From a virus (Duplodnaviria > Heunggongvirae > Uroviricota > Caudoviricetes): 6,725 bases of DNA. Within the stretch, counting starts at the first letter, position 1. Each line of letters starts with the position of its first letter. Under the pieces are notes generated by a model. The model ran no database searches and was not told the DNA's origin. It saw only the letters and a list, made by a program, of their open reading frames with translations. The position numbers and the translations under genes are program-made. Positions 189 through 6,725 of this stretch are shown piece after piece. Location: IMG/VR virus record IMGVR_UViG_2548876853_000015; one strand, 5' to 3'.

Positions 189-373
189 AATGGCAGCCTC
201 CTTTGACTAAGTTAAGGAGCTACCGCGTGAGGTCTCAATCTCAATGGCGGTAGCACTGACTGGGTTGAGACTACCGGCGTCAAAGGGAACCGGCCTGCCT
301 TTCGGCAGCCCAGCCAGCACTACCATTGATTTCGGAGCTAAACGCTACGTATGGCTGTGCGATGGCATGACAC

Positions 374-395
374 AAAAAAAGACGCTTTCGGCGTC
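374..395 (-). terminator. Rho-independent terminator-like hairpin on the minus strand (GACGC-CGAAA-GCGTC followed by T7)
   Basis: Plus 381-395 gacgctttcggcgtc forms a 5-bp GC-rich stem with a 5-nt loop; plus 374-380 is an A7 run, giving a U7 tract on the minus-strand RNA directly 3' of the stem. It sits about 150 nt downstream of the pacB stop and about 100 nt downstream of the predicted promoter. Confidence 0.5.
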
Positions 396-501
396 TGTGT
401 CGCCTTTGACATTATCCGGGGTCTCAATCCCGGCACCCGTTTTAATGAGGTGCCTGATAAGCATAAACCGAAAATGCCTCAAGGCGCAAGAGGTCAGGTT
501 C

Positions 502-544
502 AATGTAACATCGGTAGTTAAAAAACACAATTTATTAGAGCAAA
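502..544 (-). promoter_or_regulatory. Candidate sigma70 promoter overlapped by a P1 C1-repressor operator-like 17-mer, immediately 3' of pacB
   Basis: Minus strand 544..528 reads TTTGCTCTAATAAATTG, matching the recalled P1 C1 operator consensus ATTGCTCTAATAAATTT at 15 of 17 positions. A -35 TTGTGT (530..525), 17-nt spacer and -10 TACATT (507..502) follow on the same strand. Confidence 0.5.
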
Positions 545-547
545 TAT

Positions 548-2032
548 TCATTCATTAAGCCATGCCAGAGCTTCATCAACCTGCGCTTCGTCTTCGACGC
601 TAAGCACTTCATCCTGGGGAACATAATCCGCCAGCATAGCGAAACAATATGTATCCCAATGGTCTGGTGAGTGCAGGTTGAGTTTTTTCTTCATATCCTC
701 CTTACTCATCACCTTCCATTGACCTGCGGAGTTAATCCCTACAGGGATTTTCGACGCTTCCTCAATAGTTTCATTACCCTTATCCAGTCTCATACGACCA
801 GATTTTACGGCCTCTGCGGCTTGAACGTTGGCATAAGCACGTTTATCAAAGTACAGGCTCTTATCTTCACGGCTATGCATCTTTTTACCCCAGCGTATGC
901 GCTGTACGGTAATACCATAATACTCGTACATCAGATCCGCCGTTGCTTTACCCAGGCCATCGCCGTCTATCGCTATGGTGATATTTGGGAATCGCTCAGG
1001 ATTACATTCTGCGAAAATTTTGGCGGCAAGCTGCGTTTCTGTAACGTCTGTGTATTCCAGCATTCGATAGTTGATTACACGGCGTTTATTTCGCTGGCCG
1101 GACACCATCATGATATTGATAACGGACTTATCCCGTCCCGTACCACCAGCAACGTCCACACATGCAAGCCAGCCCCATCCTTTTGCAATCTTGACTTTCC
1201 GCCGCGTTGCACGTTCAACCTCATCACGTCCAAGAAGGAAGCCATCCTGTGATTTAGGGAATAGGCCGCGTACCTTAATCATGTACATAGGGTTATCACG
1301 CCCGCCGTACTCCGCCAGCTTCATTTTGATAAATGCTGGCGTTACCAACGGTGATTCCTCACTGTTAAGCGTGATCGCCGTATAAACGCCATCAGGGTTA
1401 CCAGGACGCTTGGCCAGTTTATGGTGTGTATCGTAGAAATAGCCGCTTGGGCGTGTAGGCTGTGACAGTAATAAGATGCGGTTATCCTGTCCGGTAAGAG
1501 CACCGGTGATGATACCGAAAGCTCTATCACTGACACCGGAGGCTTCATCGATAATATACAGAAGATGATCTGCGTGTTCACCGGCAAGAGCTTCTTCACT
1601 TCCCAGACGAAAGCCCTTCGGTACTACAGTCCATACACCTTTACCAGTAACCTCATAGAAAGCGGTTTCTGTCAGAACAAAATAATCAGCAAGCCATGGA
1701 AAACGGCTGGTGGCAGTAGCCCAGTTTATCTTGATGTACTTGAATATACCGGTCATTACCTGCTGAATTTTGTTCGCAACGATAATGGCGCGGGCACCGG
1801 GATACATGATTATGAACAACATGATCATGATAGAAGTCATGTCTGATTTCCCGGTACCGTGACCAGACGAAACAGATGTCTTGCTACCCTGTTCCTGCAC
1901 AGACTCAATAATCAGATCCTGCTGCCAGGTAGGTGTTTTGCCGAACAAAACATCAGCGGCCGCAATCCAGTCATAACGATATAGCGCCACCAGCTCGCGC
2001 CAACGTGGATCCGTTACGCAACTTCTGGCCAT
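548..2032 (-). CDS. pacB: Terminase large subunit (P1 PacB-type), 494 aa
   Basis: 494-aa ORF with a Walker-A-like ATPase motif (SSGHGTGKS). Start ATG overlaps the pacA stop by one nt (TAATG). Size and position match the recalled P1 PacB (494 aa). Confidence 0.9.
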
Positions 2033-3225
2033 TAATCATCATCCCCGTATAGCTTGCGGGTAACTTCTTCGTCTTCCTCCTCGTCTTCGTCCAGGTCTTG
2101 TTCCAGCCATGGGTCGTTTGATACACCTTCAGTATCAACATCTCCATAACCGCCTGTATCAACGATATCGGCGATTTCTTCCCTACGCTGCTCAATCCAC
2201 AATGCGGCATCGGCGCGGCGGTTGGCGGCCCGTTCTCGCGCAACTTTGTCCAGATCTTCAAGAGAAGGGCCACCGACGGCTGTTTGCCTTTCCTCATCAT
2301 CGGTATTGGTCTTAGGAGCACGCAGATCGGCTTTGATTTGCTCCAGCATCAGGGGCGGAACTTTCCCACCATGCGCCTCGATAAATTCAGCTGCTTCCAG
2401 CACTGACCAGTTATTTTCACGCTTTCGTTCGTATGCCAGCTTAACAATGCCAGCTTGCCCCATAGACAAAGCGTGCTTTTCCGCCTCCCGGCTTTCTTTT
2501 CGATAGTTATTCCGGATGCTGTAAATGGTGTTGATCAGACTGCTTATCTGCGCGGAACAGCTGTTTAGCATGCTCGCGATACGGTATTCAGGCGGAGTGC
2601 CTTCATCATCGTCTTTTTGCTGATCGCGCATTTCCTGCACCAGGCGAATACACGTATCCCTGGCGTTCTCCAGCATAAGGAGATGAGAAAGAGACTTTTC
2701 AAGAAGAGTGGTTTCCAGAACATCGGCCCCGGACCGACGCAACATAGCGCGTGCGGCCTTCCGCGCTTCAACGTTATCTATCAGGTAATCGCCAGCTTCG
2801 AATTCAAAGCGTTCACCATCATCATCCAGGGTGTCGCGTTCCAGACGATCACGCAAGGTCCGGTGGGCGCGGGTGATCACGTCATGATCATCTGAACGAT
2901 CATTTATGCGCTTATTTTGGCGCTTCGCATTCTCGACTGCGGCACTGACAACGGCATTAACTCTCTGTTTTTCCGCTATTTCAGCCGCAATATGATCACC
3001 TGCATGTTGATCATTAGAGTGATCAATGATCATGCTTTTTAGTGGCTTCCTGACTGGCTTATTTGGCTTGCGGCTGTCCGCAGTCCTGGTGTCTTCTTTG
3101 AAGGCACGGAGATAACGACGTGCGGTATTAGGGTTAAGATTAAACTCGGCGGCATACTGTGCGATGGTGTAACCACCATCTCGCGCCAGGCGAGCAAAAT
3201 TCTTCTTGTGATCGTCCCAGGTCAC
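2032..3225 (-). CDS. pacA: Terminase small / pac-recognition subunit (P1 PacA-type), 397 aa, GTG start
   Basis: 397-aa ORF with an N-terminal helix-turn-helix-like segment ([27 protein letters not shown]) and a highly acidic C-terminus. GTG start at 3225 with SD AAGGAAG 5 nt upstream and an in-frame stop immediately upstream. The pac hexamer clusters lie inside its 5' third, as in P1. Confidence 0.88.
2874..3032. other. pac packaging site: two clusters of TGATCA/G hexamers (Dam GATC sites) flanking a roughly 90-bp hexamer-free core
   Basis: Hexamers at 2874-2879, 2885-2890 and 2897-2902 (the last as cgatca, i.e. TGATCG on the other strand), then 2993-2998, 3008-3013, 3020-3025 and 3027-3032. 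This 3 + 4 arrangement over about 160 bp matches the recalled P1 pac site (about 162 bp, seven hexamers). One further cgatca lies at 2846-2851. Confidence 0.75.
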
Positions 3226-3280
3226 TTATGCTTCCTTTCGTAAAAACTCTTTTTGACGCGAGGGTAACGAAAGTCACATG

Positions 3281-3300
3281 TCAAAAGGCCCGGAACGGGC
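3281..3300 (-). terminator. Weak terminator-like hairpin directly after the lpa stop (GCCCG-TTC-CGGGC then CTTTT)
   Basis: On the minus strand a 5-bp GC stem (3300..3296 with 3292..3288) and 3-nt loop are followed by C then TTTT (3287..3283). The short stem and short U tract make this tentative. Confidence 0.3.
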
Positions 3301-3310
3301 AAGCAATCAA

Positions 3311-3763
3311 TCAGATACGTGCGGATGTGGCATTACCGTAATGACGGTGCTGACGGGCCACCTTATTGAAAAGTTGACGCGCCATTACCCAAGGCTGGTG
3401 CTCCCGGCGTTCCTTTTCGTCCTGCGTCATATAGAGTTCGTTCTGGAGTTTTTCATCAAACCGGCGCGGAGCGCGGCTACGGCGAAAGAATTCAGGATTC
3501 AGAGAGTGGATCTGAAATCTACGTGGGCGTGTACTGTCATCAATCAAAACAGACGAATACTTAGACACAGCGATAGCCTTTAAGCGCAGATAAACATCGC
3601 GCTTATCGACATCCAGATGCGGGTATTCCTTTTCAAGAATTGCTGCGAGTTCTTTCGCTGATAGAAGAGATTTAGTGCGGATCATGTAATCCGCAATCTC
3701 GTACGATGTTATTCGTGAGTGATTTATTTCCATGAAGTGGCGTCCCTGCCAGTTAAGTAACAT
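3311..3763 (-). CDS. lpa: Candidate late-promoter activator (P1 Lpa / gene 10-like), 150 aa, basic
   Basis: 150-aa ORF immediately upstream of pacA, the position I recall for P1 lpa. SD GGTGA lies 4 nt before the ATG at 3763. Assignment is by synteny and size, not by a recognised motif; an alternative start exists at 3733 (MEINHSR...). Confidence 0.55.
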   Translation of the reverse strand: MLLNWQGRHFMEINHSRITSYEIADYMIRTKSLLSAKELAAILEKEYPHLDVDKRDVYLRLKAIAVSKYSSVLIDDSTRPRRFQIHSLNPEFFRRSRAPRRFDEKLQNELYMTQDEKERREHQPWVMARQLFNKVARQHRHYGNATSARI

Positions 3764-3851: not shown

Positions 3852-4895
3852 TTATCTAACGCTCGACGAGTGACTTGTGATAGCGCCGACTCCAAGCGCG
3901 TAATCAAAGAACAATCGTTGATGCATCGCCAGCCTACCGTGCGTCTTCTCCCAATTATCGCGGTCACGCTCAATATCACGCTGGCATGACTGGCACAGAG
4001 GAATTGCGTAAATGTCATGCGCGCATAATCGACTATGACGAACGATATAAGGCGTAATGTGAGCGCCAGCTCCCGCCGCTCCACACCCACAGCATGGACG
4101 GGAAGCAACAAAGTCCATGTACTCAGGTAATTTTAGCGATTGCAGTTTTGGTATTTTGAAATGCGCCATGCCAGGGTCGGAGTCAACATCCACAGGGCAT
4201 ACTTTTGCACGCATCGGCGCGGCGCGTTCTTCCATCATCTGAACATATGCTGTAGCGCGATCGTCATACGGGCGAATATCCGCCTCTTTCAGAGGTCCGC
4301 TATCCTGCGTTGCGGCTTTCATCTTATTTATTGATATACGGCAAACTTCTTCCGGCATCAGGTGCATCATGTTGCGCATGAAAGCCCACCAGCACAGTTC
4401 CTGAATACTTAAATCATGGCCATCTGAAAACCCCATTTCCTGACGGGCGACATCCAGGATCCAGTTAACGCGATTATTATGCAGCGTTTCTTTCAGCTCA
4501 TTAAAACCACGCATCCGGTAATGGTTATCGTGATGCCAGCACAACAACACCGCGCTATTGTCTCGTTCTGCGTGGACAATATGGTTGTCACACCAGCTAC
4601 GATCTGCGGCCTGGCATTGCCCCTCTTTCCTGCGCAACCACGCCACCAGCGCGTCAATTCCACCAATACGGCGAAACAGTTCATCGCTGTTAAAAAACGG
4701 CTGCAACGCCTCATTTGTTGCCATAGTTTGCTCGGAAACAACGAGGCCGTCGTCCATGTGCTCGATTAACTCACGCGGCACCGGCTCCATAATAAATTTA
4801 CGGCCAGCCTCCACCAGCTTTCTGACTTCCTGATCCACTTTGAATGTGGCGACGCCAAGCTCTTTTTGTACAAAGGGAGTAATTACGGCTTTCAC
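3852..4895 (-). CDS. Post-doc region protein, 347 aa, with a Cys/His-rich C-terminal module (possible zinc-binding HNH-like fold); function unknown
   Basis: 347-aa ORF with GTG start at 4895 (SD AAGGTG upstream). The C-terminus carries CCGCG ... H ... H ... CAH ... CQSC spacing typical of zinc-ribbon / HNH-like motifs. The position between doc and lpa corresponds to the pdc (post-doc) genes of P1; a resemblance to DUF968-type prophage proteins is a recollection, not verified. Confidence 0.65.
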
Positions 4896-4922: not shown

Positions 4923-5102
4923 TTATCTGCTGCCCGGCATTCTCTGTTTAAGCACAACCATTTCCTGACGGCATAACACAGCAATAGCAGTCCTGGCTCT
5001 AATTTGCTTACCAACCAGGTATTGCTTTACCTCGCGGCGACTCACGCCATCAAGAAGCATCTTTAACGCTTCACGGGACAATTTGTTGTATTTGCGTGCC
5101 AT
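4923..5102 (-). CDS. Small basic protein (59 aa) immediately downstream of doc, possible helix-turn-helix; post-doc region
   Basis: ATG at 5102-5100 lies 4 nt after the doc stop, and its SD (GGAG, 7-nt spacer) is embedded in the last doc codons, suggesting co-transcription with phd-doc. The track start at 5123 would overlap doc and lacks an SD. Protein MARKYNKLSREALKMLLDGVSRREVKQYLVGK... is Arg/Lys-rich. Confidence 0.5.
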   Translation of the reverse strand: MARKYNKLSREALKMLLDGVSRREVKQYLVGKQIRARTAIAVLCRQEMVVLKQRMPGSR

Positions 5103-5106
5103 TAAT

Positions 5107-5487
5107 CTACTCCGCAGAACCATACAATCTACGTAACGTGGCGGCGACAGAAGATACAGATATCTCGCCAGTCGCAGCCCCTACGGTAAGGTCTGCCAGT
5201 TCAGGTGAATCAAATACCTGCACCCCGTTACGGCGTAGAAATAGCAGCGCACTGTTTAGCGCGGTACGCTTATTGGCATCATTGAATATATGCCCTCTCG
5301 CAGTAGCAACCAGGTAGGTTGCGGAGATTTCGAAAAGGTCGGTGATCTCTTCGTAGGCAACTCTGGCCTGAACTCTCCCGATAATGGCCTCTGCCCTACC
5401 CGGATCTGACATTCCCGGCAGGCCGCCGTAGCGGCTTATATTCGCATCATGAAGCGCAATAAGTTCTTCCGGTGATATATGCCTCAT
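5107..5487 (-). CDS. doc: Doc toxin (Fic/Doc family kinase that targets EF-Tu), 126 aa
   Basis: Fic-type motif HIFNDANKR is present. The sequence matches my recollection of P1 Doc nearly residue-for-residue. Start ATG overlaps the phd stop by 1 nt (TAATG). Confidence 0.95.
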
Positions 5488-5708
5488 TATCGGTTAACCA
5501 GTTCCTTGTTGGTGGAGTCCAGGGTGTCAAACAGGGATGCAAATTCAGCATCCAGCGCCGCTTTTTTGTAGGCTTCGAAAGTAGCCTTGCTGACAATTAC
5601 TGCTGGCTCACGGCCTCTGCGGGTGATTTCAACCTCTTCCCCGGCTTCAACATTGTTAAGCACTTCAGAAAGGTTGCCACGCGCGGTACGGAAGTTAATG
5701 GATTGCAT
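5487..5708 (-). CDS. phd: Phd antitoxin (prevent-host-death), 73 aa
   Basis: [49 protein letters not shown]... matches recalled P1 Phd. I place the start at the ATG at 5708 (SD GAGGTG upstream) rather than the track's GTG at 5714. Overlaps doc. Confidence 0.93.
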
Positions 5709-5716
5709 AAACACCT

Positions 5717-5780: not shown

Positions 5781-6170
5781 TTAAATGATCGGACAATCAT
5801 CAAACTCCCCACATCGGGCATCATTGATGACATGAGTGATCACACCAAAAACAGCATTACTACCCGTGTAACCATCGTCATCTACTGGTAACGCCTCTTT
5901 CTTCCCGGTGCTTAAATCCTCCAGGTGCTGGCGCGGATACTTCCTGTATCTCTTTATGCGATATTCACCCTCCATAGCGCAGACAAGCAGCGAACCATCA
6001 ACCGGAGTAAGCGAGGAATCAACCACCAGCAAAGCACCCTGCAATATTCCCTCACGGTGATGGCTGTCTGCCGCCCGCATGAAGTAGGTCGCTGATGGAT
6101 GCCTGATTAGTTGCTGATCAAGAGAAATTCTGCTTTCAACATAATCCGCCGCAGGAGAAGGGAAGCCCAT
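5781..6170 (-). CDS. humD: UmuD'-like translesion-synthesis accessory protein (P1 HumD-type), 129 aa, S24 peptidase-like fold without the N-terminal cleavable arm
   Basis: Strong similarity to recalled E. coli UmuD from the GFPSPAADYVE region onward (HPSATYF, VVDS, FGVITHV blocks). The protein begins about where UmuD is processed to UmuD'. SD GAGGTG upstream. Confidence 0.9.
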   Translation of the reverse strand: MGFPSPAADYVESRISLDQQLIRHPSATYFMRAADSHHREGILQGALLVVDSSLTPVDGSLLVCAMEGEYRIKRYRKYPRQHLEDLSTGKKEALPVDDDGYTGSNAVFGVITHVINDARCGEFDDCPII

Positions 6171-6344: not shown

Positions 6345-6725
6345 ATGCCTAATCGCATTCCTCTCGATCCTGTATTGCCCAAAAATTTTGACTGCACTCC
6401 TAACGAGAGACGCTCTAAAGCTCAGCTGGACGCCTGGTGGGACCATCCCTATGGGGTTACAGAACATGACGGGAAAATTGTTGTTTATTGTCTGAATGGT
6501 GGCGCGTGGGACCGTCCATCCGTGCTGGGTTTGGCAAATAACTATGATGAAGCCTGTGAACTTGCCGAAAGACAGCAGGCTAGATGGGTAAAAACGCGGT
6601 CACAGCCGATATTTATGTACTCACAGGAACCTCCATTTGTGCTGGCGAGAATGCCGCAGCGACCGGATCTGAACCGCCCCGGGTTTCCTGGAGAGTATTT
6701 TATCTGTGAACTCAGGCTGCCAGAT
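6345..6725 (+). CDS. Hypothetical protein, 5' portion only (ORF runs past the right edge); divergent from humD across the LexA box, possibly the P1 lxr-like LexA-regulated gene
   Basis: ATG at 6345 with SD AAGGA 7 nt upstream; open for 127 codons to the window end (MPNRIPLDPVLPKNFDCTPNERRSKAQLDAWWDHPYG...). Not in the ORF track because it has no stop in the window. Identity not recognised from sequence. Confidence 0.6.
   Translation, partial: MPNRIPLDPVLPKNFDCTPNERRSKAQLDAWWDHPYGVTEHDGKIVVYCLNGGAWDRPSVLGLANNYDEACELAERQQARWVKTRSQPIFMYSQEPPFVLARMPQRPDLNRPGFPGEYFICELRLPD

Follow-up and report, generated by a model that had tools for sequence, protein, structure and literature searches.

A P1-type pac site with clustered Dam hexamers in the pacA gene of a P1-like phage-plasmid

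The closest known system to the locus described here is the pac site of phage P1 (Sternberg and Coulby 1987; PMC10028697; NC_005856). It extends over about 161 bp inside pacA and consists of seven TGATCA/G Dam hexamers in two groups (HEX4 and HEX3), a cleavage site at the center and a binding site for IHF, and destruction of the hexamers by synonymous changes reduces the P1 titre about 9-fold (PMC10028697). According to the model summarized in the same work, hemimethylated pac is bound, while cleavage is permitted by full methylation. Sequencing of P1 virion DNA (PhageTerm) revealed two termini 6 bp apart, at the very positions that Sternberg and Coulby had mapped, and P1 was classed as a headful pac phage with an estimated number of about four genomes per concatemer (PMC5557969). 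In P1 neither pacA nor pacB is dispensable (PMC10695390). The headful pac sites of P22/SPP1-type phages are likewise found inside a small-terminase-like gene, a first cut is again followed by processive headful packaging, and the cuts are imprecise in both cases. Typical small terminases, however, are far smaller than PacA. To our knowledge, pac sites of the P22/SPP1 type are not made of Dam hexamers and show no methylation gating.

We analyzed a DNA stretch of 6,725 nt, in the following called the window, which represents a segment of a P1-like phage-plasmid with its genes on the minus strand. The gene order pacB-pacA-lpa-pdcB-pdcA-doc-phd-humD is the same as in P1, and the coordinates of all features are given in Table 1. 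The window shows 97.5-98.5% identity to phages JL22, RCS47 and SJ46 compared to 93% for P1 and P7. The element groups with the former three and carries the pacB-c1 insertion of that subgroup, which is not found in P1. Elements covering at least 80% of the window are widespread (451 PLSDB plasmids and 461 of 5426 complete E. coli genomes), none of them being identical to it. Both genes of the terminase pair are intact. PacA is 96.7% identical to P1 PacA over its full length and contains an N-terminal helix-turn-helix (HTH_23, residues 10-44) scoring below threshold. No Pfam-A match at E <= 0.001 was obtained for PacB, a divergent large terminase that is thinly covered by Pfam and is matched by the PHROG terminase large-subunit family. 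Between lpa and LPpac we observed a GC-rich hairpin with a T run (GCCCGTTCCGGGCCTTTT) at 3283-3300 (-), which was not called by a simple terminator scan and is probably the lpa terminator; the P1 copy is identical. The whole stretch 3226-3310 comprising LPpac and this hairpin is the same as in P1 (85/85 nt).

Table 1. Features of the window, with the corresponding coordinates of the P1 record where these were used for assignment.
Feature	Window position	Strand	NC_005856 position	Description
pacB	548-2032	-		494 aa; terminase large-subunit-type partner of PacA; phrog_2, E = 3e-40
pacA	2032-3225	-		397 aa; pac-recognition subunit of the P1 pacase; phrog_1711 terminase, E = 7e-205
Eighth hexamer	2846-2851	-		TGATCG; beyond the minimal site of ~161 bp, 22 bp from HEX3; P1-clade-specific
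Seven canonical hexamers	2874-3032	-		159 bp; pacA nucleotides 194-352, codons 65-118, within the 5' third of the gene
HEX3, distal recognition arm	2874-2902	-		TGATCG 2897-2902, TGATCA 2885-2890, TGATCA 2874-2879
Hexamer-free core of pac	2903-2992	-		90 bp; contains the putative site for IHF and the predicted cleavage points
Primary pac cleavage points (predicted)	2941-2950	both	90804-90813 (one strand 90806/7 and 90812/3, other strand 90804/5 and 90810/1)	by homology with the misc_features of the P1 record
IHF-binding site	2958-2970	-	90784-90796	putative; by position, from the P1 protein_bind feature
HEX4, pacA-proximal (5') recognition arm	2993-3032	-		four TGATCA: 3027-3032, 3020-3025, 3008-3013, 2993-2998; identical to P1
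Late promoter LPpac	3261-3279	-	90475-90493	-10 and -22 elements, driving pacA-pacB; assigned by identity to P1
lpa	3311-3763	-		
pdcB	3852-4895	-		
pdcA	4923-5123	-		
doc	5107-5487	-		
phd	5487-5714	-		
humD	5781-6170	-		

Eight GATC sites are clustered within 187 bp of pacA, starting at 2847, 2875, 2886 and 2898 on one side and at 2994, 3009, 3021 and 3028 on the other. All eight are part of a TGATCA or TGATCG hexamer on either strand, with hexamer starts at 2846, 2874, 2885, 2897, 2993, 3008, 3020 and 3027. The remaining 8 hexamers of the window are spread over about 6.5 kb and even the nearest pair is 51 bp apart. We compared this density with 3000 first-order Markov simulations of the window: a span of 187 bp contained a maximum of 7 GATC (mean 3.6) and a maximum of 4 hexamers (mean 1.7), the observed 8-site density being reached in none of the 3000 composition-matched sequences. 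When 33 sites were placed uniformly, a 187-bp cluster of at least 8 appeared in 10 of 20000 trials. Over its full length the window is not enriched in GATC (33 sites vs 27.6 expected), the signal thus being one of clustering and not of abundance. The initial annotation had described a dense TGATCA/G cluster embedded in pacA with isolated copies elsewhere, and both the counts and the position within the full-length gene agree with this description. It had further proposed a "3 + 4" arrangement around a hexamer-free core. The core indeed lacks any GATC over its 90 bp; the 3 + 4 count applies to the seven canonical hexamers, whereas the actual sequence including 2846-2851 reads 4 + 4.

We aligned the window with phage P1 across pac. 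Over positions 2820-3060, 237 of 241 nt are identical in a gapless alignment, which places the site at the same location in a full-length pacA as in P1. The seven TGATCA/G hexamers of P1 are arranged 4 + 3 with spacings of 7, 12 and 15 bp, a 90-bp core and spacings of 12 and 11 bp, exactly as in the window. The cleavage-region sequence TGTCAGTGCC including the cleavage decamer is also the same. Of the four substitutions, one is an A-to-G change within the IHF site, and another directly follows the fourth hexamer on its 3' side. P1 annotations were transferred by subtracting the NC_005856 coordinate from 93754. Two staggered cuts 6 bp apart are thereby predicted halfway between the arms, whose inner edges are at 2902 and 2993: at 2941/2942 and 2947/2948 on the pacA-sense strand, and at 2943/2944 and 2949/2950 on the other strand. 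The match to P1 pac asserted in the initial annotation is therefore confirmed by alignment, and its prediction of cleavage near 2905-2990 encloses both the P1-derived cleavage points and the IHF site. The 13-mer at the IHF site is AAACAGAGAGTTA in the window and AAACAAAGAGTTA in P1, with two mismatches to the consensus WATCAANNNNTTR as opposed to one in P1; the window variant recurs in 17 of 80 related loci. Since scanning with the IHF consensus returned 64 matches vs 63 expected, a match on its own is at chance level and the assignment of the IHF site rests on homology. Taken as a whole, the interval 2874-3032 (-) together with the flanking eighth hexamer at 2846-2851 is almost certainly the pac site of a P1-type phage-plasmid, and nothing in the window sequence contradicts this explanation.

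Outside of pac the similarity to P1 is uneven. The first approximately 800 nt of pacA and LPpac are 98-100% identical to P1, while the last 400 nt of pacA, like all of pacB, show a DNA identity of only 86-90%, so that the specificity of the pacase is an assumption here. Identity over the whole pacA-pacB region amounts to 88.7% (match M74046). This mosaic pattern suggests recombination inside pacA just downstream of pac.

We then asked how the site varies among close relatives. Using an N-terminal PacA peptide, a selection independent of the hexamers, we collected 80 IMG/VR loci representing 64 distinct pacA alleles with 96-99.4% identity to the window. The pac interval turned out to be more variable than the rest of pacA, with 39 of 160 variable columns (24%) compared to 142 of 1034 (14%). 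Within the interval the hexamers are spared: only 2 of 42 hexamer columns vary vs 36 of 117 other pac columns (Fisher p = 5e-4). All three hexamers of HEX3 are invariant in 64/64 alleles; in HEX4 three of four are invariant and the remaining one is TGATCA in 61/64 alleles. The eighth hexamer is conserved in 63/64 alleles of the P1 clade. In the core, 28 of 90 columns are variable among these alleles, and this includes the cleavage decamer. A search of viral contigs for the full pattern of six hexamers yielded over 120 loci; the match was 152 bp long in every case, which implies a fixed core of 90 bp. Since the hexamers served as search key, these loci were left out of the conservation statistics.

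A more diverged clade is formed by Cronobacter phage JK004 and the Salmonella plasmids CP053320, CP146848 and CP077703, at a PacA identity of about 70%. Here six hexamers are found in register at gene positions 201, 213, 228, 324, 336 and 347. Of their 36 nt, 35-36 agree with the window, while identity drops to 48-50% in the remainder of 201-352 (p about 1e-8 to 1e-9). In the Salmonella plasmids the hexamer at gene position 213 reads CGATCA, which is still TGATCG on the other strand. These putative pac sites share the 90-bp core length and the place after the HTH-coding part of pacA with the window, although the core itself is only about 50% identical. They differ in having no counterpart of the first hexamer (gene position 194) or of the eighth (375), in place of which GATC is found at 365 and 391. 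The three Salmonella plasmids also show an additional TGATCA at pacA 275-280, exactly at the P1 cleavage position, in an otherwise hexamer-free core. The constancy of the hexamers in DNA and protein that drift around them shows that selection acts on the pac DNA itself.

Clusters of the same kind were also observed in distant PacA-like genes of about 30% identity. These genes are carried by plasmids of 84-96 kb in Serratia, Pantoea, Citrobacter, Leclercia and Enterobacter, and by a megaplasmid of 177 kb in Xenorhabdus. TGATCA/G clusters occur just after the HTH-coding part, often with 12-bp spacing; a Pantoea gene has six TGATCA in a row at this spacing, and in most of the distant genes a smaller second group follows about 100-150 bp downstream. 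Between gene positions 140 and 400 these loci have 17.4 hexamers per kb, vs 1.4 per kb elsewhere, with a binomial p of 2e-33 that overstates independence because several of the loci are interrelated. An E. coli group annotated as 'DNA pacase A subunit' is without such hexamers; this group may be D6-like. In 8 of the 10 distant plasmids fetched, the pacA-like gene is preceded by a divergent parM/StbA partition gene and not by lpa; the arrangement is absent from the Citrobacter freundii locus and from one Enterobacter locus. Extension of the hexamer clusters to PacA genes this distant is suggestive only. We lean slightly towards the view that the two-arm TGATCA/G design after the HTH-coding part is conserved across the wider P1-like phage-plasmid family and is not a peculiarity of P1. 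In a search of open-access literature, no paper stating such a family-wide design was found.

Both ends of the window deviate from P1. Homology to P1 stops at 549/550, and P1 has no counterpart of the 1-549 stretch between pacB and c1. In the closest relatives this region holds two small ORFs followed by roi/ant before c1, with JL22 gp120 corresponding to window 345-551 (-). The pacB-c1 insertion has been described for pTZ20_1P and RCS47 (PMC6906374). Positions 1-161 also match the Icd-like gene region of phage Ro157c2YLVW. Rfam detected a C4 antisense RNA at 243-330 (-) with 75 bits (gathering 45) and an isrK Hfq-binding RNA at 375-453 (-) with 60 bits (gathering 50). Both matches fall within the 1-549 stretch, which JL22, RCS47 and pTZ20_1P carry together with an antirepressor gene (roi/ant), and the stretch looks like a second immI-like antirepressor-control module. 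At the other end, homology to the lxr genes of P1 and JL22 ends at 6669, and the remaining bases (about 6667-6725, TGAACCGCCCCGGGTTTCCTGGAGAG...) match the IS629 terminal inverted repeat as annotated in VT1-Sakai, as well as many Stx phages. An IS629-type insertion thus seems to interrupt the gene, and the element could consequently be defective elsewhere, outside of the window.

We considered whether the GATC clusters might have no function as DNA and simply result from a low-complexity linker of PacA rich in Asp-His or Asp-Gln, encoded by GAT-CAN. In-frame translation of five of the seven canonical hexamers does give D-H, D-Q or D-R, and the diverged homologues again contain D-[HQR] dipeptides. 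The two other hexamers, however, are read in a different frame (M-I, V-I-T). Moreover, Asp at hexamers is always encoded by GAT and never by GAC, although GAC makes up between one third (window) and more than half (JK004) of the pacA Asp codons elsewhere. The T preceding GATC occupies a third codon position and, in the JK004/Salmonella clade, persists in codons whose amino acid differs (I/N, N/R, G/R), apart from gene position 213 in the Salmonella plasmids, where it is C. Hexamers that stay in register despite changed amino acids, together with the exclusive use of GAT, indicate that the clusters are not a mere by-product of the linker, and the reduced phage yield after synonymous recoding in P1 (see above) also speaks against a coding origin, which we regard as highly improbable. 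An equally improbable role for the clusters would be that of a Dam/SeqA-responsive regulatory or replication element, comparable to the GATC-rich P1 oriR or oriC, or of a methylation-sensitive promoter, instead of a packaging site. Clustered GATC sites are typical SeqA targets, yet the sites found here are TGATCA/G and not bare GATC, and they form two arms around cleavage points that were mapped experimentally in P1, which a SeqA, promoter or origin role would leave unexplained. Binding of SeqA could coexist with a pac function without replacing it. No sigma-70-like promoter was detected on either strand of 2700-3400, and the pac interval gave neither an Rfam RNA nor a terminator in the respective scans, which argues against a regulatory RNA or a promoter, even though unusual promoters could escape the promoter scan.

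More weight is due to the question whether the site is a pac site by descent that no longer functions, left as a relic in a defective plasmid-prophage that has ceased to package. Lytic functions have been lost in some P1-like plasmids (PMC6906374), JL22 as the closest named relative reportedly gave no plaques on MG1655 (PMC9603915), and lxr of the window is apparently interrupted by the IS629 end. On the other hand lxr is non-essential in P1 (PMC10695390), the seven hexamers, LPpac, lpa, pacA and pacB are all intact, and the site itself shows no decay. We therefore consider a relic unlikely, though clearly less so than the two other alternatives, and retain the reading as the pac site of a P1-type phage-plasmid.

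By homology with P1, the element of the window would be a headful packager of the pac type. Its pac site would likewise depend on methylation; every hexamer in the window contains GATC. If the locus works as P1 does, LPpac would express PacA and PacB late in infection and the pacase would bind the hexamer arms, which IHF together with HU would bring together by bending the core at its binding site. Two staggered cuts about 6 bp apart would then be made in the middle of the core, provided that the GATC adenines are methylated on both strands. Newly replicated, hemimethylated sites would be bound and not cut, so that only some of the pac copies of a concatemer would be opened. From the cut end, processive headful packaging of about four genomes per concatemer would give rise to circularly permuted and terminally redundant virion DNA. 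P1 DNA is packaged in the same sense as pacA is transcribed, with pacB, c1 and lox lying ahead, which corresponds to lower window coordinates. With this polarity, lox would fall within the terminal redundancy of the first headful.

In summary, the site is a pac site of the textbook P1 kind, carried by a common P1-like plasmid-prophage, and as such already known. Its annotation fixes the packaging origin of a P1-like phage-plasmid and, drawing on P1 biology, the probable direction of packaging. Origin and direction bear on which neighboring genes, including resistance cargo, enter the first headful, and are of relevance to the design of P1 phagemids and pac-mutant helpers. For P1 itself nothing new is added; the modest addition is the comparative picture of constant hexamers in a fast-evolving stretch and of similar clusters in distant PacA genes. 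If the two-arm design does hold across the family, initiation of packaging would be gated by Dam family-wide, and the position of the cut would be set by the distance from the arms and not by the local sequence.
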